Origin: a virus
Lineage: Duplodnaviria > Heunggongvirae > Uroviricota > Caudoviricetes
DNA: 45,525 bases
IMG/VR virus record: IMGVR_UViG_2531839662_000040
Span: 1 to 45,525 of that record
Direction: 5' to 3' (one strand)
This document shows, piece after piece, positions 2,295 through 37,634 of this stretch. The position numbers and the translations under genes are program-made. Each line of letters begins with the position of its first letter. Positions within the stretch are counted from its first letter, which is position 1. The notes beneath the pieces are model-generated. The model saw only the letters and a list, made by a program, of their open reading frames with translations, was not told where the DNA came from and searched no databases.

Positions 2295-3188
2295 ATGAGT
2301 TTAATTACGCAATTAAATGACGTAATGGCCCGTCGCGGCTTTACGCAGACCCACGTTGCCCGTGCTATTGGTCGTAGCAGCGCCGTTATCAACCAGTATT
2401 TGCAGGGCAAATATCAGGGCGATATGGCTGATATTGAAGAACGTATTTCTGCCTTTGTGACCCGTGAATGGGAAAAGGAAAACAACCGCCGTATTAAAGT
2501 GCGATTTGTCACCACCGGCATGGCCGCCAAAGGGCTGGAGGTGCTGACCTACGCCCATCTGGAGTGTGATATTTGCGTGCTGTATGGCGCGGCGGGTCTG
2601 GGTAAAAGCATGATTCTGAGTGAATATGCCGCCAGAAACCGGGATGTAGTGCTCATTGAAGCCGATATTGGCTATACGGCCAGAAAGTTACTCGATGAAC
2701 TGTGCCGTCAGCTTGGGGTAAAGGTTCACGGCGATATTCGCGAGAAGATTGATGCCTGTGTGCGTGAACTGCGTGGGTCAGGTCGTCTGCTGATGGTGGA
2801 TGAGGCTGAACTGCTCCCCTATCGTGCACTGGAGGTATTGCGCCGTCTGCATGACAAAGCGGGTATCGGGATTGTCCTGGCGGGTATGCCTCACCTTCTG
2901 ATTAACCTTAAGGGCCGTTGTGGTGAGTTCGCTCAATTATACAGCCGCGTGGCGCTGGCGCTTAACCTGGGCGATACGCTGACGCAGGAAGATTTTAACA
3001 AGATTGCCACAGACATGATGCCGGAAGCGGCGGACCCGGAAATTGGTGAGGCACTTTACACACGTTCGCTGGGTAATGCCCGTCGTCTGTTCAAGCTGGC
3101 GCGCGGTGTGTACCGGATTTGTGATATCAGCGATGCACCGGTCAGTGTGCAGGCCATTGATAAATATTCAGAAATGTTAATTCACTGA
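2295..3188 (+). CDS. Mu B-like AAA+ transposition ATPase
   Basis: 297 aa; N-terminal HTH-like region, Walker A GAAGLGKS, Walker B-like LLMVDEAE; directly follows transposase. Confidence 0.8.
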   Translation: MSLITQLNDVMARRGFTQTHVARAIGRSSAVINQYLQGKYQGDMADIEERISAFVTREWEKENNRRIKVRFVTTGMAAKGLEVLTYAHLECDICVLYGAAGLGKSMILSEYAARNRDVVLIEADIGYTARKLLDELCRQLGVKVHGDIREKIDACVRELRGSGRLLMVDEAELLPYRALEVLRRLHDKAGIGIVLAGMPHLLINLKGRCGEFAQLYSRVALALNLGDTLTQEDFNKIATDMMPEAADPEIGEALYTRSLGNARRLFKLARGVYRICDISDAPVSVQAIDKYSEMLIH

Positions 3189-5871: not shown

Positions 5872-6083
5872 CAGAGAGAGTTTATTTATGAATATCGCTA
5901 AGCAAAAAAAGTTCGCCCGCGAAATTAATCTGACAATCGTTTGTTTTAATCGTCTTGCGACCAGTTCTCAATCGACAGCAGATGTTCATTCAGTACCGCA
6001 GCCAGAACGAACTCCCCACGTTCCTGATGGCCGTGCCGGAAGTTGCGTAATTCAGAATTCAGGATGCTGAGGTTCAGACGACC

Positions 6084-7896: not shown

Positions 7897-8069
7897 AAAA
7901 CCGTAAGGCAAAAATTCTGTTAGCTCGCAGAAACGGTGTTGGGGTCTGGCGATGGTTGAGGATTAGTAACAGACGAGTGAGGTTGACGGGGTGTTGCGGG
8001 GTGATGTTGCACAGCTGTTGCAAAAAGCCCAGCGCGGCGCAAAACCGCAGGAAAAATCACGGTATGTAA
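7893..8069 (+). CDS. small basic Cys-rich protein (MKNRKA paralog 2, 58 aa)
   Basis: ATGA overlap with paralog 1 stop; first 19-21 nt near-identical to paralog 1. Confidence 0.25.
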   Translation: MKNRKAKILLARRNGVGVWRWLRISNRRVRLTGCCGVMLHSCCKKPSAAQNRRKNHGM

Positions 8070-8081
8070 AGGAGGTGCCAG

Positions 8082-8492
8082 GTGAAGAAAATGGTTTTTG
8101 TGGCGGCATTGCTGACAATTACCCAACAGGCGCAGGCTTCAGCAGTTATTGTGGCATCTGCCGCTGCGACCACGGCTGCTGTAGCTGCTGCAAACTCTGC
8201 GAATATCGCAAGCCAACAGGAGCGAGACGCTGCTAACGCATCAGCCAGTGCTCTCCCGATTTCTGTTAAGGGCAGTAAGCAACATCTGGGGTTCATAACG
8301 TGCGGTAAGCGTTCTTATGAAGCTGTAGGCTCACTGGGATGTACGGTATATGGCGACAGTGAGAGCAGAGAAATTCCATGGAAAACGTGGCCCGGATACG
8401 TTCTTGGCTCGAAGCTCCCGGCCAGTTATGAGGTAAACGCCGTGTCGTTTGATCACTATAACGGCGTGGCAACTGTCTATTTCACATACTGA
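8082..8492 (+). CDS. secreted protein with N-terminal signal peptide
   Basis: GTG start 6 nt after AAAGGAGG; MKKMVFVAALLTITQQAQA signal-like N-terminus followed by Ala-rich region. Confidence 0.5.
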   Translation: MKKMVFVAALLTITQQAQASAVIVASAAATTAAVAAANSANIASQQERDAANASASALPISVKGSKQHLGFITCGKRSYEAVGSLGCTVYGDSESREIPWKTWPGYVLGSKLPASYEVNAVSFDHYNGVATVYFTY

Positions 8493-8596
8493 GGCCCGGC
8501 ATGAAATTTTCTGAATCACGGAGCAACAACACGATGAAAGCCATCACCGTAACTCGACGTTCCTGATTTCGCGGGTTGTTTAAACAGTAATCAAAT

Positions 8597-8624
8597 GCAG
8601 ACCAAAACATATGTTTTGGTCTGC
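8597..8624. promoter_or_regulatory. perfect 28-bp palindrome GCAGACCAAAACATATGTTTTGGTCTGC
   Basis: read directly; second partial half-site TTTTGGTC 12 nt downstream; sits before ORF 8647. Confidence 0.35.
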
Positions 8625-8646
8625 CAAAAGTAGTGTTTTGGTCATT

Positions 8647-8925
8647 ATGAAGATTGAACAAATCGGAATAGCTGCTTTCAGGCAGCAGGCTGAAAGCGGT
8701 GGCGTGGATGAGTTCGTTGTGCAGCGGTTCGGTGGTGTGTATCACCTCTTCGCTGTGAATCGCCACGCCGGGGTGTCCTATTTTCTACAGGAACGCCGTG
8801 GCGATTACAAGACATGGCTGTCTCTTGACCGTGCCGCTGCGTTCTTGTCAGGGATTGGCGTTTCACGTTTTACCGTGCGTTTTGAGGATAACAAACATGC
8901 TGAAAAAGATGATCGGGGCCATTAA
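8647..8925 (+). CDS. hypothetical protein
   Basis: ATG at 8647 (ORF track 8611 start lies inside the palindrome); 92 aa. Confidence 0.3.
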   Translation: MKIEQIGIAAFRQQAESGGVDEFVVQRFGGVYHLFAVNRHAGVSYFLQERRGDYKTWLSLDRAAAFLSGIGVSRFTVRFEDNKHAEKDDRGH

Positions 8926-9295
8926 AGCCGGTCAGGCGTATCTGGGGTGGGATGATGCCCTTTATCGCCAGACGCTGGCCCGCCTGACCGGTAAAACCAG
9001 CACCACACGCTGCAATCTCGATGAACTGCGCATCATCCGGGAATACATGCACGAACAGGGATTCCCGCGCAAGGCACCCGCTGGTAAAGGTCGCCGCCCT
9101 CGTGTTGCAATGAGCAGAAAATCAGTATTATCCAAAATTGAAGCGTTGCTGGCTGATGCCGGTCGTTCCTGGGCGTATGCAGAAGGACTGGCATCTCACA
9201 TGTATAAGCAACATGTGATCGAATGGCTGACGGATGAACAGCTTTTTGGAGTGATGGTGGCGCTGGTTAAAGATTCAAGAAGGAGAAATCAATGA
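8897..9295 (+). CDS. GemA-like (Mu gp16 family, DUF1018) regulatory protein
   Basis: internal ATG of ORF 8798; LGWDDALYRQTLARLTGKTS...ELRIIREYMHEQGF resembles recalled GemA N-terminal signature. Confidence 0.5.
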   Translation: MLKKMIGAIKAGQAYLGWDDALYRQTLARLTGKTSTTRCNLDELRIIREYMHEQGFPRKAPAGKGRRPRVAMSRKSVLSKIEALLADAGRSWAYAEGLASHMYKQHVIEWLTDEQLFGVMVALVKDSRRRNQ

Positions 9296-9768
9296 TGAAA
9301 AAATGGTTGTTTTGTTTAGTAGGGGTTATTTTCTCTTGTTCTGTGCTGGCACAGACAGAGGAACAGGCGCAAAAGGAACTGAAACGTTATCAGGATATGA
9401 AGCCATTGGCTGAACAGATGCTTCGGGAAAGTGGAAAACTTTATTACGCTATGCCAGAAGCTGCATCGCAGTATCAGCAGGGAAATATTGAAGAGTGGAA
9501 GAATATCAAAAAAGGACTAAAACAACTGGATGAACAGGCCAGTAAACTGGGGGACGACCCGCTTGATCCTGTGTATGGTTCCTGCATAAAAATGAAAAAC
9601 CAGCTACAGGATTACTGGTCTAACGTTATCAGGGATGACAGGCAGTTTCTGGAGCGTTCAAGAAATCAGTTTAAAGAATATCGTATGGATTGTTTTGATT
9701 CGTTTGTTTTTGGTAAAGAGCAAATAGAATCAAGAAAAGGCCTGGTTATTCTAGACCTGACTAAATAA
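9292..9768 (+). CDS. secreted or periplasmic protein with signal peptide
   Basis: MMKKWLFCLVGVIFSCSVLAQ signal-like N-terminus; followed by a strong terminator. Confidence 0.45.
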   Translation: MMKKWLFCLVGVIFSCSVLAQTEEQAQKELKRYQDMKPLAEQMLRESGKLYYAMPEAASQYQQGNIEEWKNIKKGLKQLDEQASKLGDDPLDPVYGSCIKMKNQLQDYWSNVIRDDRQFLERSRNQFKEYRMDCFDSFVFGKEQIESRKGLVILDLTK

Positions 9769-9867: not shown

Positions 9868-10335
9868 ATGCAGACCTTCAGTGAAACAGATCTTCGCGAT
9901 GCGCAGGCACTGCTGCCCGATTCCGTGCAGCAACTGATTAGCGTGATTGGCTTCCCCGCCCTGACCCGGTTAATCCGTTCTTTTGGTGGCGTGACGTTAA
10001 GCGGTAAAACCGGCGCACACGCCGGACGCACCGGCGGTGTCCATGCCCTGTTACATGATGTGCTGACCGAAGACGAAATCAACAAACTGATCCGTTTTCT
10101 TGGCGGCGCACCGTTTTACATTCCCCGTTGCGATCATGCGTTACGTGCCCTGCGTAACACCCGTTTTATGGCTGATTTACAGCAGCATGTAAAAGGCGGA
10201 TGCTCACACCGGCAGGCGCTGGCACTGCTCTGTCCCCGTTACGGGATTTCAGACCGGTACGCATGGCAGCTGATACACCGACGACAAAAACAGACTTCGC
10301 TGAAAAGCCCCACCCAGGTGGGGCTTTTTGATTAA
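9868..10335 (+). CDS. Mor/C-family transcriptional activator
   Basis: 155 aa; FGG...YIPR core and C-terminal HTH-like GISDRYAWQLI typical of the Mu Mor/C family; positioned before the lysis/late genes. Confidence 0.65.
   Translation: MQTFSETDLRDAQALLPDSVQQLISVIGFPALTRLIRSFGGVTLSGKTGAHAGRTGGVHALLHDVLTEDEINKLIRFLGGAPFYIPRCDHALRALRNTRFMADLQQHVKGGCSHRQALALLCPRYGISDRYAWQLIHRRQKQTSLKSPTQVGLFD
10307..10329 (+). terminator. stem-loop plus T-tract inside the 3' end of the Mor/C-like CDS
   Basis: GCCCCACC-CAGGTGGGGC followed by TTTTT. Confidence 0.4.
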
Positions 10336-10360: not shown

Positions 10361-10639
10361 ATGACCAACTATACGGCACTTGGCGAGTATACAGCCTACT
10401 CAGAGCAGGCCAGGGATGCTGCCGGACGCCGCTTCGCTTATATGAAAAATCTGGCCAGCCAGCTAAACCGAATGGCTGAACAACCGGATATGGTTGTTCA
10501 GGAAGAAGCGTTGCAGTGTGCCATTGCTGACATCATCGCCAGCGAAAACGAGATGCGCGCAGCGATGGAAAAGGCGAACGCCTCTGCTCCGCTTTGTAAT
10601 AAACCTCTTATTACGCCGGATTCTCTTTCCCGCTTCTGA
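10361..10639 (+). CDS. hypothetical protein
   Basis: ATG at 10361 preceded by AAAGGAG; 92 aa. Confidence 0.35.
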   Translation: MTNYTALGEYTAYSEQARDAAGRRFAYMKNLASQLNRMAEQPDMVVQEEALQCAIADIIASENEMRAAMEKANASAPLCNKPLITPDSLSRF

Positions 10640-18020: not shown

Positions 18021-18045
18021 TCGTTTTTAAAAGGGTTTTAAAAAC
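18021..18045 (+). terminator. AT-rich palindromic hairpin CGTTTTTAAAA-GGG-TTTTAAAAACG
   Basis: perfect 11-bp arms followed by T-rich tract, between G-like and I-like genes; second hairpin GCCTCA-CGGA-TGAGGC just upstream. Confidence 0.3.
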
Positions 18046-18082
18046 GGTTTTATTTCCCATTTTATCCTTTCCCGTTATGGCT

Positions 18083-29374: not shown

Positions 29375-30024
29375 TGTGGGACAAAGTTAATCAGCGCGTA
29401 CAGCAGGCACTGGCCGCCGTTCGCCAGGCATTCAGGGTGGTGACCGGTACGGTGGACAGTTCGACCAAAGTACAGTTGCTTCAGCTGAACGGGCTGGCAG
29501 GCGAACAGCTGGATGGTGCGGAGTATTTCCAGCATTACGGCCTCACCACATCTCCGCCACCCGGCTCGATGGGTATTGCCGTTCCGCTGAACGGCAATAC
29601 CTCCCATACCGTCGTCGTGGCCACAGAGCACGGCGCATATCGCCTGACGGAACTGAAACCCGGCGAGGTGGCCCTGTATACCGATGAAGGCGCGAAAATC
29701 GTACTGAAACGCGGGCGGGTTGTTGAAACGGACTGTGACGTTTACCGGGTGAAATGCAAACGCTATGAGGTTGAGGCAGAGGAAAGTGCCGCATTCACGA
29801 CACCGTTACTGACGGCCAGCGATAAGCTGACGGTGGAAGGTAAAATCACCGGCAACGGTGGCATGGCCATCAGTGGGGGCAAGAAATACGCCGCCACCTT
29901 TGAAGGCAACATCAACCATGTGGGTGGTGTGATTACCTCCGTTGACGTCACCGTTAATGGCGTTAAAATCGGAACGCATAAACACGATACCCCTCACGGC
30001 ATATCTGGTCTGCCGCATAATTAA
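29371..30024 (+). CDS. baseplate spike protein (Mu gp45 / P2 gpV-like)
   Basis: 217 aa; C-terminal His-rich apex GTHKHDTPHGISGLPHN. Confidence 0.65.
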   Translation: MMWDKVNQRVQQALAAVRQAFRVVTGTVDSSTKVQLLQLNGLAGEQLDGAEYFQHYGLTTSPPPGSMGIAVPLNGNTSHTVVVATEHGAYRLTELKPGEVALYTDEGAKIVLKRGRVVETDCDVYRVKCKRYEVEAEESAAFTTPLLTASDKLTVEGKITGNGGMAISGGKKYAATFEGNINHVGGVITSVDVTVNGVKIGTHKHDTPHGISGLPHN

Positions 30025-32083: not shown

Positions 32084-33066
32084 TGCAGAATTTAATGCCT
32101 CCGGTGAATACGCCGGATAAGCTATTTCATGATGGTGACCCCACTCAGGGAATTGAGGGAACCATCGTTTACGCCGAATATATGAATAATCATCAGGCGG
32201 CAACGCGCGATTTGCAGCAGGAGGTGATTAACGTCCTTAAAGAGGCTGGCGTAACCCCGGATCCGAAAAAACAGAATCAACTGGTTGAGGCGCTGGCCTT
32301 ATATGTCGGGAAAAAAGTTCCTGACGCATCATTAACGAAGAAGGGTATCGTTCAGCTCAGTAGTGCAACAGACAGTGATTCAGAAGAACTGGCTGCCACC
32401 CCAAAGGCAATAAAGGCGTTAGCAAAAAAAATTGCTGATTTACAGGGTACGGCTTTACCGGTCGGGACACCAATCCCGTGGCCATCTGATTCTGTGCCAT
32501 CCGGTTATGCCTTAATGCAGGGGCAAAGTTTTGATAAAGGCTCTTACCCTAAACTTGCGGTTGCCTATCCGTCCGGGGTTATTCCTGATATGCGCGGCTG
32601 GACTATCAAGGGTAAGCCTGCCAGTGGTCGTGCCGTATTGTCTCAGGAACAGGATGGCATCAAGTCGCATACCCACAGTGCCAGTGCGTCAAATACCGAT
32701 TTAGGAACGAAAACGACAAGTTCATTTGACTACGGCACCAAGACAGTCAGCACGTTTAACCACGGCACAAAATCAACAAATAACACAGGAAATCATACGC
32801 ACAGTGTCGGTGGTGTTTATGGCGGCGACTCTATCGGCGGAAAACAACGTGTGCAGGCGTCAGGGAGCAATCAGATTTCCAGTACTGCCGGAGCACATGC
32901 TCATACTGTCGATATTGGTCAGCATAACCACACCGTAGGTATTGGTGCCCATGCACACACTGTGGCATTGGGTGCGCACGGGCACACCATCACGGTAAAT
33001 CCAACAGGCAATACCGAAAACACCGTCAAAAACATTGCATATAACTATATTGTGAGGCTGGCATAA
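32083..33066 (+). CDS. tail fibre protein (Mu S / P2 H-like) with His-rich HxH repeats at C-terminus
   Basis: N-terminal [25 protein letters not shown] and collar-like [11 protein letters not shown]...PDMRG; C-terminal HTHS, GNHTHS, GAHAHTV, QHNHTV, GAHAHTV, GAHGHTI repeats. Confidence 0.7.
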
Positions 33067-33641
33067 TGACTTTCAAAATGAGTGCAGAAGCACAAACCAT
33101 TCGTGTATTTAATTATCTCGATGGCACAAATGAATTTATTGGCGAAAGCGACGCATATATTCCACCTCATACAGGTCTGCCAGCTAATTCAACAGATATT
33201 GCGCCTCCTGATATTCCGGCGGGTTTTGCTGCCGTGTTTAATGCTGATGAAATGAAATGGCATCTGATGGAAGACCACCGAGGGAAAACGGTTTATTCAA
33301 CAGAAACCGGAGTAGCTGTAACAGTGTCTGAACTGGGAAGCCTTCCTGAAAATGTGACTTCTGTTTCTCCTGATGGCGAATACCAACGCTGGAATGGCAG
33401 TCAGTGGGTGACAGATGAAGAAGCCAGGCGTAATGCGCTGATAAATCAGGCGGCAGAGAAGAAAGCGGGTCTGCTTAAACAGATGGGAGAGCAAATCGCC
33501 GTTTTACAGGATGCCGTTGATTTTGGTGAAGCGACGCCAGAAGAACAGGAACAGCTGACAGCCCTCAGGAAATTACGAATAAAGTTAAATCGCATTCAAC
33601 CGGAAAACGCGCCAGATATTGACTGGTCAGACTTTGAATAA
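33066..33641 (+). CDS. tail fibre assembly protein (lambda Tfa / Mu U-like)
   Basis: N-terminus [33 protein letters not shown] closely matches recalled lambda Tfa. Confidence 0.8.
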
Positions 33642-33649
33642 ATCAGACA

Positions 33650-33670
33650 GCCGCCCGCAGGCGGCTTTTT
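33650..33670 (+). terminator. rho-independent terminator
   Basis: GCCGCC-CGCA-GGCGGC followed by TTTTT. Confidence 0.6.
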
Positions 33671-33686
33671 ATCATTCAGAGGTTTT

Positions 33687-35303
33687 ATGTCTGTATTAAT
33701 CTCAGGCGCGCTTATTAATGGCGCTGGCGTTCCGATGGCGGAATGCAAAATTTATTTAGATGCACTGGTTAATACCAGTGAGGTGGTCACTGAATCATTC
33801 GCGGTTATTGAAACCGATGCGGCGGGACAGTATGCCTTTGAAGCGCAAAAAGGCAAATACACCGTACACATCAAGCAAAAGAACGGCCCCAAGTGCTGCG
33901 TGGGTGATATCGCTGTATACGATGACTCAAAGCCCGGCACACTGAATGATTTTCTGACCGCCCCCAATGAAGGCGACCTCAAACCCGACGTGGTGAAACG
34001 CTTTGAGGAAATGGTGGCGCAGGCGCAGCAGAGCGCGGAAGCGGCAGCGGAAAGCGAACGACAGGCCGGGCAACACGCAGCTGATGCGCAGAAGATTAAG
34101 GGTGATTGCCAGACGCTGGCAGATAATGTTCAGCAGAATACAAATGCTGTGGAGGAAAACACGCAGCGCGTTGAACAGCTGGCCTCAGAAGTTGAGCTGA
34201 ACGCCGGGCAGGTGCAGCAGGGCGTGCAGAATGTTACTGATGCGGTAAAAAAGGCGCAGCAGGCAGCAAAGAATTCTGCTGACAGTGCCACTGACTCAAA
34301 AAACAGTGCTGACAACGCCGCCCTGAGCGAACAGAACGCACAAAAACACGCGCAGAAAGCTGAACAACATGAGCAGCAGACTAAACAATATGCGCAGGAT
34401 GCAGCGACCGCCGCAGAATCAGCAGAGAACGCCAAAGGCGAAATTGACGAAATTCTGGATGGCGGCTATCTCAAGATAAAAAACAACTTTCAGGAAATTG
34501 TTGATGCTGGCCCCTCAGCACTGGCTCAGGCCCAATGGAATTTACAGATTTCCGGGGTGAAAAATAAACAGGTAATTGCCACCCCTTATACATGGCCATC
34601 CAGAACTGAGTATGAACAAAGGGTGCATCTGCCACTCGCCGGGGCTTACGGATTTGGCTACACGTTTGAAGACAAAAGCCAGGGACGTATAAACCTTAGC
34701 GAAAGTTACACCGGCTCCTGGTGGTCACAGTGGGTAAAGCCGGGGCGTTATTACGTTACAACCAGTGATAAACAATATCTGACACCAGACGGGTACACGT
34801 ACGGGGTTGTTGATGTGCTGTGGCTTAACGGTAACGCATATAATGACGCTTCGCAGGTTCTTAAAATACTGGCTTTTTACGATGGTGACGGATGCCTGCA
34901 TATCGGCAAGCGCGTTGGTCAGAGCAACTGGTCAATAAGCTGGCGCAAGCTGACATCGCTCCCTGATGTCAGGGCCATGCTGTATTCATATATTTATAAT
35001 AATTACAACAGAGAATGGCGTGACCCGGAGCTGGGAGGTTTAATTCTGGCGTCATACCAGGGAACCGCAGACGGCGACACAAATATAAAAGTATCCCGTG
35101 GTCAGACTTATCCCGGCTCACGACTTGCACCTGTGGCGATAGAATGCCAGTTCACTCCATCCGGTACGTATGCCGCAACACCGCGATTCCATATTACCGG
35201 CTGCAAGAGCAAATCACTCCCCGGAACTTATATTTCACTGTCTGGAGCACCCACAACATACAGCGACCAGGCTTTTGTGGCGCTATTCATGAGGATTGCA
35301 TGA
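33687..35303 (+). CDS. side tail fibre protein (lambdoid Stf-like N-terminus)
   Basis: 538 aa; MSVLISGALINGAG N-terminus of lambdoid Stf type; Ala/Gln-rich coiled middle; distinct C-terminal domain. Confidence 0.65.
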   Translation: MSVLISGALINGAGVPMAECKIYLDALVNTSEVVTESFAVIETDAAGQYAFEAQKGKYTVHIKQKNGPKCCVGDIAVYDDSKPGTLNDFLTAPNEGDLKPDVVKRFEEMVAQAQQSAEAAAESERQAGQHAADAQKIKGDCQTLADNVQQNTNAVEENTQRVEQLASEVELNAGQVQQGVQNVTDAVKKAQQAAKNSADSATDSKNSADNAALSEQNAQKHAQKAEQHEQQTKQYAQDAATAAESAENAKGEIDEILDGGYLKIKNNFQEIVDAGPSALAQAQWNLQISGVKNKQVIATPYTWPSRTEYEQRVHLPLAGAYGFGYTFEDKSQGRINLSESYTGSWWSQWVKPGRYYVTTSDKQYLTPDGYTYGVVDVLWLNGNAYNDASQVLKILAFYDGDGCLHIGKRVGQSNWSISWRKLTSLPDVRAMLYSYIYNNYNREWRDPELGGLILASYQGTADGDTNIKVSRGQTYPGSRLAPVAIECQFTPSGTYAATPRFHITGCKSKSLPGTYISLSGAPTTYSDQAFVALFMRIA

Positions 35304-35872
35304 TGCAGATAAAAGAAATTACCAGCCCCCACTACACCGAATCCGGTGCGATTGACTGCGAAGTTTTATTTGAAGGGATGGATGAAGCCGTTCCGTACAC
35401 AGCCACACCAGAAGACACAGCAACAACAGGCCAGCAAATTTGGCAGGAACTGCAAAGCGGCAAATGGGGCGAGATTGCCCCGTTCACCGCATCACCTGAA
35501 CTTATCGCAGCAGCAAAGGACGCCAAAAAACGGGAAATTGAGGCATGGCGCACAGAACAGGAAGCGCAGCCATTCACGTTCGAATGGAACGGCCGCACAT
35601 GGAACGCTGGCCCCGACTCAATGGCCCGTCTTTATCCTGTGGTAATGGCTGCAAAATCTGATACGGCACGAACTGCCCTTGCGTGGGGTGACGCCGATAA
35701 TCAACAGGTGAAACTGTCGATGCCGGAACTGGAAGAACTGGCAGCCGCGATGGCGCAGGCGCAGGTTGAGCGCAATGACGAGATTTATCAACGCCAGCGT
35801 GAGATGAAGGAGGAACTGAATAACCTGGATGATTTACGCTCAATCAGAGCGATGACGATTAGCAGCAGTTAG
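35300..35872 (+). CDS. tail fibre assembly protein (Tfa)
   Basis: ATGA overlap with fibre stop; 190 aa; highly similar to the Tfa at 44953..45525. Confidence 0.65.
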   Translation: MMQIKEITSPHYTESGAIDCEVLFEGMDEAVPYTATPEDTATTGQQIWQELQSGKWGEIAPFTASPELIAAAKDAKKREIEAWRTEQEAQPFTFEWNGRTWNAGPDSMARLYPVVMAAKSDTARTALAWGDADNQQVKLSMPELEELAAAMAQAQVERNDEIYQRQREMKEELNNLDDLRSIRAMTISSS

Positions 35873-35876
35873 CGGT

Positions 35877-35937
35877 CAATTCTGGACTTTTTGGGCGCAC
35901 CTGAACCGTCCAGAATTGCGCGTCAATCAGTCCAGAA
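35877..35937. repeat. inverted repeat CAATTCTGGAC / GTCCAGAATTG with third TCCAGAA copy
   Basis: 11-bp arms separated by 20 nt; third half-site about 12 nt further on; lies between a Tfa and an N-terminally short fibre ORF. Confidence 0.35.
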
Positions 35938-35955
35938 AAAAACGCGAAGTTACAG

Positions 35956-37032
35956 ATGATCAGCGACAGAGGTACGCTTATCGCGTACGGACGTTATCCC
36001 GACACCTTTTTACCAGACCAGACGGACTCCGTTATCAAGGAAGTTATTCTGACGCTGGTTCTTGGGTTGACGCACGCACAAAACGTGGTGCTGGAAGTTG
36101 ATCCGGACAGGGCCATTATTACTCAGGAAATCGGAGACAGACGCTATCTGCAACGAAAAAAGAATCTTTCGGATGTGGAAGACAAGGATGAGGCTGTTGA
36201 AAACCTCGGATTAAAACCCACGGTGGACAAGGCAAAAAATGCCGTTCAGCGTGATGGTGACACCATGACCGGGGAACTGAAAATCCGTGGTGTTAATGCG
36301 CTGAGGATTTTCAACGAGGCTTTTGGCCTGATTTTTCGTCGTTCAGAAGATTACCTGCACTTCATTCCCACGCAGGAAGACCATGGAGAAAATGGTGATA
36401 TTGGCCCACTGCGGCCCATTTCCATTAACCTGCGCCAGGGCGATGTGGTTATTGGTGACAGGATTGGCATCGGTAATGAGAACAATCTGGGTGAAAAATC
36501 ACTCACGCTCTGTGATAGCAATACCGGTTTTAAGTGGGGCGGACGCGGTGTTATTAATGTGTTTGCAGAGGGACACAACGTCTTTCGTTTTACAAAAAAC
36601 GGTGTGCTGGCATTAGAAAATCTCTCGACCGGCAATTTAAGAAAGTTCACGCTGTCGTGTGACAGTTCTTCCACGAAGAGTGCAAGATTTAATCTATGGG
36701 GAAATTCCTCAAGGCCTGTTGTTGCAGAGCTTGGTGATGATTCTGGCTGGCATTTTTACAGTCAGAGGAATACGGATAACAGCATAACGTTTGCCGTAAA
36801 CGGGCAGATGGTTCCATCAAACTACGGAAATTTTGATACCCGTTACCAGACCAGAACAGGTGGTGTGCAGGATGTGCGTCTGGGAGGTGCCATTGGTATT
36901 GGACGCGGAGGAAATGCGCCATCAGGTCATTTACTGAGTGGTGTTGATGGCGGTGAAAGTGTGGACTGGGCCAATGCACGCCCGGTGCAGGTTCTGATTA
37001 ATGGTGTCTGGCGAAATGTAGCGAGTTTGTAA
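35956..37032 (+). CDS. tail fibre C-terminal-type protein lacking Stf/H-like N-terminal domain
   Basis: 358 aa; GDTMTGEL fibre motif and Gly-rich C-terminus; weak RBS; frame open about 50 nt upstream without start codon. Confidence 0.5.
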   Translation: MISDRGTLIAYGRYPDTFLPDQTDSVIKEVILTLVLGLTHAQNVVLEVDPDRAIITQEIGDRRYLQRKKNLSDVEDKDEAVENLGLKPTVDKAKNAVQRDGDTMTGELKIRGVNALRIFNEAFGLIFRRSEDYLHFIPTQEDHGENGDIGPLRPISINLRQGDVVIGDRIGIGNENNLGEKSLTLCDSNTGFKWGGRGVINVFAEGHNVFRFTKNGVLALENLSTGNLRKFTLSCDSSSTKSARFNLWGNSSRPVVAELGDDSGWHFYSQRNTDNSITFAVNGQMVPSNYGNFDTRYQTRTGGVQDVRLGGAIGIGRGGNAPSGHLLSGVDGGESVDWANARPVQVLINGVWRNVASL

Positions 37033-37034
37033 TC

Positions 37035-37580
37035 ATGATGCACTTAAAAAATCTTACGGCACAAAACCCTAAAACAATTGAGCAATACCAGCTGGCACGA
37101 CAGCATAAATTTTTATTGTGGCTGTTCTCCGATGATGGTCAGGAATGGCACGAAGCCCAGGAAAAATTTCAGCCAGACACTCTGAAAGTTATTTATGTTG
37201 AAACTGGCGAAGTGGTCTGGGTCGGAAAAGACATCACCTCAATCTGCCCGGAAAATAAAAGTGTGATTGAGTTGCCGGATATTACCGCTAATCGTCGCAT
37301 TGAGGCGTCGGGATACTGGTTCTACCGCAATGATGAATTTGTTTTTGACTACAAACTTAAAGCGGAAGATGAGCGTGATGCACTGTTAAAACAGGTCAGC
37401 ATCATGACCAGCGAATGGGAAAAAGACCTGCTGCTGGGATTAATCAGTGACGAAGACAGGGAAAAGCTCAAAGCGTACCGCATTTACGCGAAATCGCTGC
37501 AGGCGATGGATTTCAGCGCTATTACGGATAAGACCACTTACAACAATATTAGCTGGCCTGAGCAGCCACAAAATACCTGA
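37035..37580 (+). CDS. tail fibre assembly protein (P2 G / TfaE-like)
   Basis: 181 aa; MMHLKNLTAQNPKT...VELPDITANRR resembles recalled TfaE-type chaperones. Confidence 0.7.
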   Translation: MMHLKNLTAQNPKTIEQYQLARQHKFLLWLFSDDGQEWHEAQEKFQPDTLKVIYVETGEVVWVGKDITSICPENKSVIELPDITANRRIEASGYWFYRNDEFVFDYKLKAEDERDALLKQVSIMTSEWEKDLLLGLISDEDREKLKAYRIYAKSLQAMDFSAITDKTTYNNISWPEQPQNT

Positions 37581-37599
37581 AAAAGAAGTTAATCATCTG

Positions 37600-37621
37600 A
37601 CCGCCTGAGGGCGGTTTTTTT
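37600..37621 (+). terminator. rho-independent terminator
   Basis: ACCGCC-TGAG-GGCGGT followed by seven T. Confidence 0.6.
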
Positions 37622-37634
37622 ATGGGAGAAATGT

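Follow-up and report, generated by a model that had tools for sequence, protein, structure and literature searches.

A previously undescribed cis-element, formed by four hexamers in alternating orientation, was found in the early operon of a Mu-like prophage, where it is tied physically and evolutionarily to a gene encoding a protein of 92 amino acids (92-aa gene). The element is real and under strong purifying selection, with free spacers, a fixed geometry and linkage to this gene. To judge from the sequence, the array is very probably a binding site controlling the 92-aa gene. The perfect 28-bp palindrome on which the preliminary description of this DNA was centred is one strain's version of the larger four-hexamer element.

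Most of the semi-essential early region of Mu-like phages lacks annotation, and little is understood of how the gemA-mor end of the operon is controlled. The array and its gene form a conserved pair that moves between unrelated temperate phages, and a 40-bp site with a single 92-aa protein could reveal a new early-to-late regulator or a small nucleic-acid-binding fold. The scope is modest, since the 92-aa family is small.

Genomic setting and structure of the array

The window, that is, the whole stretch of DNA analysed (45,525 nucleotides), covers a Mu-like prophage, and its gene annotation was taken from the RefSeq record of the Escherichia coli UMNF18 chromosome (NZ_AGTD01000001.1), which is identical to it in sequence. 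The RefSeq gene order is repressor, Ner-like HTH protein, MuA and MuB homologues, small early genes, gp16/GemA and Mor-family activator, followed by the lysis genes and then by head and tail genes. The array is located in a gap of 154 bp between a gene for a 136-aa protein and the 92-aa gene (Table 1); the slot of the 136-aa gene holds other genes in other prophages. A rho-independent terminator overlaps the last codons of the Mor-family gene and probably closes the early operon, much as the early terminator does in Mu. Since this terminator stands at the end of the mor-like gene, the array lies inside the early operon, as in Mu.

Table 1. Coordinates of the array, its parts and the neighbouring genes in the window.
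Feature	Position	Strand	Characteristics
Perfect 28-bp palindrome	8597–8624		Dyad 1 plus 5-bp arm extensions GCAGA/TCTGC
Whole array	8602–8641		CCAAAA (h1)-CATATG-TTTTGG (h2)-TCTG-CCAAAA (h3)-GTAGTG-TTTTGG (h4)
Dyad 1	8602–8619		h1 8602–8607, spacer 8608–8613 (6 bp), h2 8614–8619
Dyad 2	8624–8641		h3 8624–8629, spacer 8630–8635 (6 bp), h4 8636–8641
Inner palindrome TTTTGG-TCTG-CCAAAA (h2, linker, h3)	8614–8629		Family consensus approximately WTTGGT-NN-ACCAAW
A-rich block TTAAACAGTAATCAAAT	8580–8596		5' of the palindrome; partly conserved despite differing upstream gene
ATG at palindrome centre	8611–8613	+	Same frame as ORF 8647 (potential 104-aa product); not conserved
136-aa protein gene, phrog_8805	8082–8492	+	Signal-peptide-like N-terminus; variable cargo, unlinked to the array
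92-aa gene, WP_001373002.1, phrog_7844	8647–8925	+	No Pfam; constant partner of the array
gemA (gp16 family)	8897–9295	+	PF06252, E 1.5e-18; 29-nt overlap with the 3' end of the 92-aa gene
Mor-family activator gene	9868–10335	+	Last gene of the early operon
Rho-independent terminator AAAAGCCCCACC-CA-GGTGGGGCTTTTT	10303–10333	+	Canonical, GC-rich with clean T-run; end of the mor-like gene

Other features of the early region were also recorded. A 158-aa ORF between gemA and mor (window 9292–9768) has a signal-peptide-like N-terminus and no family match; it is swapped for different genes in other prophages and is thus another cargo slot. A 43-bp stretch at window 8018–8060, which matches many coliphage records (Stx and P1 among them) and 254 plasmid sites at 93–95% identity, is a widely shared short segment of the variable early region. 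The Mu-like prophage itself is apparently inserted in the tail-fibre region of a P2-like prophage (L001 1–950; window ~32300–45525, L105), with baseplate and tail protein I genes on its left and, on its right, a pseudogene ('phage tail protein, missing N-terminus'), followed by genes for sheath, tube and late control D and then by the host potB.

The palindrome GCAGACCAAAACATATGTTTTGGTCTGC, with arms GCAGACCAAAACAT and ATGTTTTGGTCTGC (14 + 14), was exact as first described. It is the longest in the 45.5-kb window and the sole perfect even palindrome with arms of at least 8. An origin by chance was ruled out: an arm of 14 appeared in 0 of 200 dinucleotide-preserving shuffles, in which the longest arm averaged 7.8 and reached a maximum of 13 once. 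The sequence TTTTGGTC occurs again at 8636–8643, beginning 12 nt past the end of the palindrome. The position of this extra half-site was thus correctly reported, but it is not a lone half-site, being part of a full second dyad. Positions 8602–8641 were resolved by a repeat finder into CCAAAA-N6-TTTTGG-N4-CCAAAA-N6-TTTTGG (spacings 6/4/6), equivalent to two tandem 18-bp dyads CCAAAA-N6-TTTTGG placed 22 bp apart, centre to centre. As had been stated, the element stands just before ORF 8647 and the GemA-like gene, with 5 nt between the end of the array and the ATG, and with the ORF overlapping gemA. The described overlap with a gene start held for the unconserved ATG at 8611 and for no other, the RefSeq start being 8647.

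No further copies of the array were detected in the window or in the 2 kb leftward of it, which carry the repressor/ner control region, and the array was unique in L001. Just left of the window (L001 1935–1985), between the repressor and the ner-like gene, a dyad GGATAACAC-GGCG-GTGTTATCC is followed by a third GGATAAC; it is likely a repressor or Ner operator, unrelated to the CCAAAA array. The second-longest hairpin of the window, with 13-bp arms and a 4-nt loop, lies in the tail gene region (29572–29601). Inverted repeats with arms of 10–11 bp and short loops were located at 18022–18046, in the gap ahead of the protease/scaffold gene, at 45032–45055 and at 10476–10501.

Conservation of the array and its linkage to the 92-aa gene

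The region was found in 58 complete E. coli genomes, and sequences were read from 13 of these and from 27 viral or metagenomic contigs. Close copies were compared in 39 E. coli-type Mu-like prophages, representing 30 distinct sequences over 220 bp. Among the 39 copies the 28 positions of hexamers and linker were all invariant, against 9 variable positions out of 12 in the spacers (Fisher 8e-7). In the coding sequence next to the array, variation affected 25 of 38 third positions (Fisher 8e-9 with respect to the 0/28 of hexamers and linker) and 10 of 77 first and second positions. These figures indicate that the hexamers are constrained more strongly than the protein, and the excess of variable third positions over first and second positions that the 92-aa ORF is a real gene.

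The 28-mer was perfect in just 14 of the 39 close copies. The spacer of dyad 1 was CATATG, CATGTT, CATGTG, AGTATT, TATATG, CATGTA or CATACG, and that of dyad 2 was GTAGTG, GTAATG, GTGATG, GCGATG, ATGATG or GCAATG. The central ATG, used as a start by PGAP in a few genomes, is lost or out of frame with the centres CATGTT, CATGTG, AGTATT and CATACG. A start codon at the centre of the palindrome, or a leader peptide, was therefore rejected: the ATG is not conserved, falls in two frames among the variants and has no Shine–Dalgarno sequence (SD). The earlier suggestion of a hairpin controlling translation of the central ATG likewise fails because this ATG is not conserved, the real start being at 8647.

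Prophages lose homology to one another at several points in the roughly 20 bp ahead of the palindrome (query positions 23, 38, 41, 49 and 60), and at least three unrelated genes or contexts are found upstream of the array. The array thus belongs with the downstream gene.

The 92-aa protein family is small (about 30 protein clusters), with 20 clusters at 90% identity and 13 representatives at 50%, all from Enterobacterales-type phages. No homologue was found among 50,697 isolated phage records, so that no experimental literature is directly applicable. Searches against Pfam and with NCBI-style naming gave no match at E values up to 1, and a BFVD search retrieved uncharacterised viral proteins only. 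The protein is modelled as a small alpha/beta fold resembling eL38/FtsH-N; the top structural matches of this model are RNA-binding proteins, and neither a helix-turn-helix (HTH) nor a ribbon-helix-helix (RHH) motif was present in it.

The same 6/4/6 array was located directly upstream of 92-aa homologues in 11 distant contexts with 54–74% protein identity, comprising Intestinirhabdus, Leminorella, two Erwinia genomes and metagenomic and viral contigs; the homologues preceded by the array include those of non-Mu phages. The family consensus is CCAWWW-N6-WWWTGG-N4-CCAWWW-N6-NWWTGG, with CCA/TGG invariant; h4 of the distant relatives is GAATGG, GATTGG or GTTTGG, with TGG kept, and TGGT-NN-ACCA is perfect in L021, L024, L025, L027, L044 and L045. 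Spacer sequences are unrelated and their lengths constant at 6/4/6 across the 11 distant and 39 close copies, except for L023, a decayed prophage with a first spacer of 5 nt; the array is degenerate in L016 and L047. The ATG follows the last hexamer after 2 to 11 nt, depending on the homologue, and the upstream flanks are unrelated, the upstream gene even ending inside the array in some phages. Because the distance to the ATG varies and the internal spacing is fixed, indels occur beside the array and not within it.

In IMG/VR, the strict 24-base pattern was detected in 18 contigs, 17 of them with the 92-aa gene; relaxed patterns added matches at chance level, none with this gene. Leminorella grimontii CP146357.1 carries two near-identical Mu-like prophages (L017 and L018), each with the array-gene cassette, and in each an inserted HNH endonuclease gene separates gemA from the 92-aa family gene.

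In contigs L106 and L107, from phages with ParA, SSB and a P22-type portal, the array and gene lie just before the terminase. There was no Mor gene within 10 kb on either side of the array, and over the same distance the 92-aa protein was the sole protein in common with the present prophage. The gene and array thus move as a cassette. The lambdoid contig L059 has a strict array (5942–5981) without the 92-aa gene, sharing only the hexamers and the geometry. This array is placed downstream of a terminator and 110 nt ahead of the next ATG, upstream of a Phd/Doc-like pair, and L104, its E. coli counterpart, has exactly one dyad (3083–3100), a clean difference of 22 bp. The L059/L104 site is the lambdoid nin-region, and the single-unit form was observed in six E. 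coli genomes. Proteome comparison revealed no protein common to the L059/L104 flanks and the window.

The L059 and L104 copies argue for a DNA site of modular units and, together with L106 and L107, for a binder that would be either the product of the 92-aa gene or a host factor. In these comparisons the 92-aa product was the sole protein travelling with the array, and it is a putative binder. By-eye comparison with Mu repressor, Ner and IHF-like consensus sequences gave no convincing match.

Possible function of the array

The array would best be explained as a sequence-specific protein-binding DNA site of four alternating CCAWWW hexamers with rigid 6/4/6 spacing. Four copies of one short motif at fixed positions are the signature of sequence-specific recognition, not of a helix, and because the two dyads are 22 bp, or two helical turns, apart, all the sites lie on one face of the helix. 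This one-face layout is what a dimer of dimers would predict, with a protein lattice on B-DNA. We tentatively favour, at somewhat less than an even chance, an operator bound by a dimer of dimers; the DNA-binding factor, whether encoded by the 92-aa gene itself or by the host, would gate the distal early genes. We infer that the ligand is a protein acting on DNA, through autoregulation if the 92-aa gene encodes it. Together with this gene, the array would then constitute a mobile cassette in the early operon, just before the genes of the next stage (gemA-mor in Mu-like phages, terminase in others), and the bound factor could control, as an operator or as a roadblock, whether the 92-aa gene and those downstream of it are transcribed or expressed. 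A bolder version of this explanation is unlikely: a self-contained autoregulatory cassette, serving as a portable early-to-late gate, in which the 92-aa protein would be a previously unrecognised sequence-specific nucleic-acid binder that finds its own DNA or mRNA through the four CCAWWW boxes.

The features expected of a dyad-symmetric operator were observed as regards conservation of half-sites around a free spacer, fixed spacing and helical phasing; an adjacent promoter was lacking. No sigma-70-like promoter of at least 9/12 was detected between 8300 and 9000 on either strand, none adjoins the array and none is conserved in the family. Weaker candidates are not conserved in position across the family, and none was seen on the minus strand, a promoter for an antisense RNA included. 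A roadblock-type operator would need no promoter. Also against a DNA operator is the location of the array, 2–11 nt from the start codon and sometimes overlapping the end of the upstream gene, which would be commoner for translational control. The preliminary description proposed an operator for a dimeric regulator, a reading supported in part, by the invariant half-sites, free 6-bp centres and rigid spacing across genera. The proposal requires revision in that the unit is an array of four hexamers, suggesting a dimer of dimers, which is unique in the prophage and has no adjoining promoter, and in that the regulators then named (Ner-like, Mor/C-like, prophage repressor) do not travel with it in other phages.

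Among known systems, tandem dyad operators such as lambdoid OR1-OR2 and the dimer-of-dimers sites of P22 Arc/Mnt resemble the array in their conserved inverted half-sites with a free centre, and in that two sites, separated by about two helical turns, occupy a single face beside the gene that they would control. The array differs from them in having no detectable promoter or nearby cognate HTH/RHH protein, and in being single per genome, inside an operon and abutting a start codon.

A translational operator on the early mRNA, setting the use of the SD-poor start at 8647 through a protein or through the structure itself, is the main alternative, although less likely than a DNA operator. The segments would pair as 1:2 and 3:4, or as 2:3 nested in 1:4, and the gene's own product, a host factor or an RNase would act on them. 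Autogenous translational control is exerted by T4 gp32, RegA and ribosomal proteins, and alternative mRNA structures are known in lambda cIII. The array likewise covers the ribosome-binding region of its own gene with four segments capable of alternative pairings, and its partner protein has an RNA-binding-like predicted fold, with no HTH. Its position in the translation-initiation region, with h4 ending 2–11 nt ahead of the ATG in all homologues, those with an overlapping upstream gene included, is that expected of a structured cis-regulatory RNA; moreover, the window copy has no recognisable SD, and the site lies without a promoter within an operon ending at terminator 10303. The E. coli group has a strong 1:2 hairpin (-33 kcal/mol for the region of the window copy, z -3.5). 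Two of three stem-extension variants retain pairing via G-U, and compensatory swaps were found between h1 and h2 (CCAAAT:ATTTGG in L044/L045) and in 2:3 (AATTGG:CCATTT in L027). Pairing 2:3 was the best kept of the three, with 90% of cells paired and five double changes, matched in 4 of 500 shuffles; pairing 1:2 was kept in 79% of cells. However, pairing 3:4 was no better than in shuffled columns, with 3 bp (CCA:UGG) left in distant members, and single-sequence folds of the homologues were mutually discordant, without a common fold. The RNAalifold consensus, based on few independent sequences, was weak (-4.2 kcal/mol), its covariation term of +0.35 being unfavourable and giving no bonus. G-U pairs were not enriched over A-C, and the stems of distant relatives are AU-rich and 5–7 bp long. 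The invariant loop lengths would be unusual for simple hairpins, and in L059/L104 as many as 110 nt separate the copies from the start codon that follows. No Rfam family was matched, the best sub-threshold hit reaching 19.8 bits against a gathering score of 55.8. In contrast to autogenous operators, no conserved fold or covariation was found for the array, and half of its putative helices do not form in distant homologues.

The remaining explanations were considered less probable than either a DNA-bound or an mRNA-bound operator. The array could be a mosaic-boundary or mRNA-processing element, a hairpin at a module junction of the variable semi-essential region. It would then be maintained as punctuation of the polycistronic early transcript, for instance as an RNase III or RNase E site or a 5' stabiliser of the distal 92-aa-gemA-mor message, and its shared sequence would favour recombination between phages as well. 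The break in homology just upstream of the palindrome, the unrelated upstream genes, the nested 1:4/2:3 fold of some copies (L003), which resembles two-stem RNase III signals, and the 22-bp indel between L059 and L104 agree with such a role. Structure alone, however, would fix neither the 24 hexamer positions nor, across genera whose stems have ceased to pair, CCA/TGG and the exact spacing, and the array may mark a boundary as a result of being conserved and not the other way round. This role is quite improbable. It is very unlikely that a host regulator of the GntR/FadR type (UxuR/ExuR) occupies the inner palindrome TTGGT-NN-ACCAA, linking the cassette to sugar-acid metabolism. The UxuR operator AAATTGGTATACCAATTT has a TGGT-N2-ACCA core (PMC8092373), which recurs in the family consensus of the inner palindrome; L027 matches this operator at 13/16, the best value among the relatives, five others (L021, L024, L025, L044 and L045) have perfect TGGT-NN-ACCA arms, and a host factor would explain the presence of the array in phages with no other common protein. 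But the window copy matches at 10/16 only, with GCCA in place of ACCA, the likeness is one between short AT-rich palindromes, the equally conserved outer hexamers h1 and h4 have no counterpart and are left unexplained, and there is no link to hexuronate genes. It is hardly credible that the array is a plus-strand attenuator or an intrinsic terminator working on the minus strand or in both directions, for instance to end an antisense RNA: the consensus scan gave, on the minus strand, a 12-bp stem followed by ATTTGATT, with a partly conserved T-rich tract, but this match is weak and is accompanied by no minus-strand gene or promoter. The plus-strand stem is followed by CAAAAG, with no T-run, the short AU-rich stems of distant copies also speak against it, and the terminator that the phage does possess, at 10303, combines a high GC content with a clean T-run.

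Mu biology in general, not this array, makes it plausible that an internal control point exists upstream of gemA. The site of a Mor/C-type activator for an internal 'gem' promoter was considered. The Mor site in Pm of Mu is 16 bp long, with 5-bp inverted repeats and a 6-bp spacer, centred at -43.5 (PMC4390567). Dyad 1 shares this 5-6-5 geometry, as well as the Mu-like phage setting and the closeness to gemA and mor; with a dyad centred near -43.5, CATTAT (8643–8648) would occupy the place of the -10, and CTGCCA-16-CATTAT scores 8/12 in all E. coli-type copies. Nevertheless, the predicted start would fall past the ATG at 8647, CATTAT overlaps this start codon, and the -10-like hexamer is not conserved at the required distance in distant relatives. 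The spacer of the array is A/T-rich and variable, that of Mor sites G/C-rich; the half-sites are unrelated, and the array is duplicated in tandem. No similar dyad was found ahead of the late genes in the window, and L106 and L107 have the array without a nearby Mor gene. A Mor-type promoter was rejected on the variable A/T-rich spacer, the unconserved -10 and the occurrence of the array in phages lacking a nearby Mor, and an activator site of this kind is correspondingly among the least probable readings.

Two further candidates were rejected. An invertase site similar to gix/hix was discarded on the grounds that there is no recombinase gene and that the outer half-site sequences differ. Iterons, the 22-bp direct repeats of plasmid and phage origins, share with the array the period of 22 bp and the copy-number steps of 22 bp (L059 versus L104). 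The array differs from them in having two units only, each internally palindromic, and no rep gene, in a transposable phage that replicates by transposition with MuA and MuB. Four perfect 22-bp repeats GCAACCAAAAAGTGGGGTTTGG, followed by 42-bp repeats, were observed in L086 (5910–5996), an unrelated low-GC viral contig and a chance match to the relaxed pattern, where they lie upstream of a 442-aa Rep-like ORF and have the look of an iteron origin.
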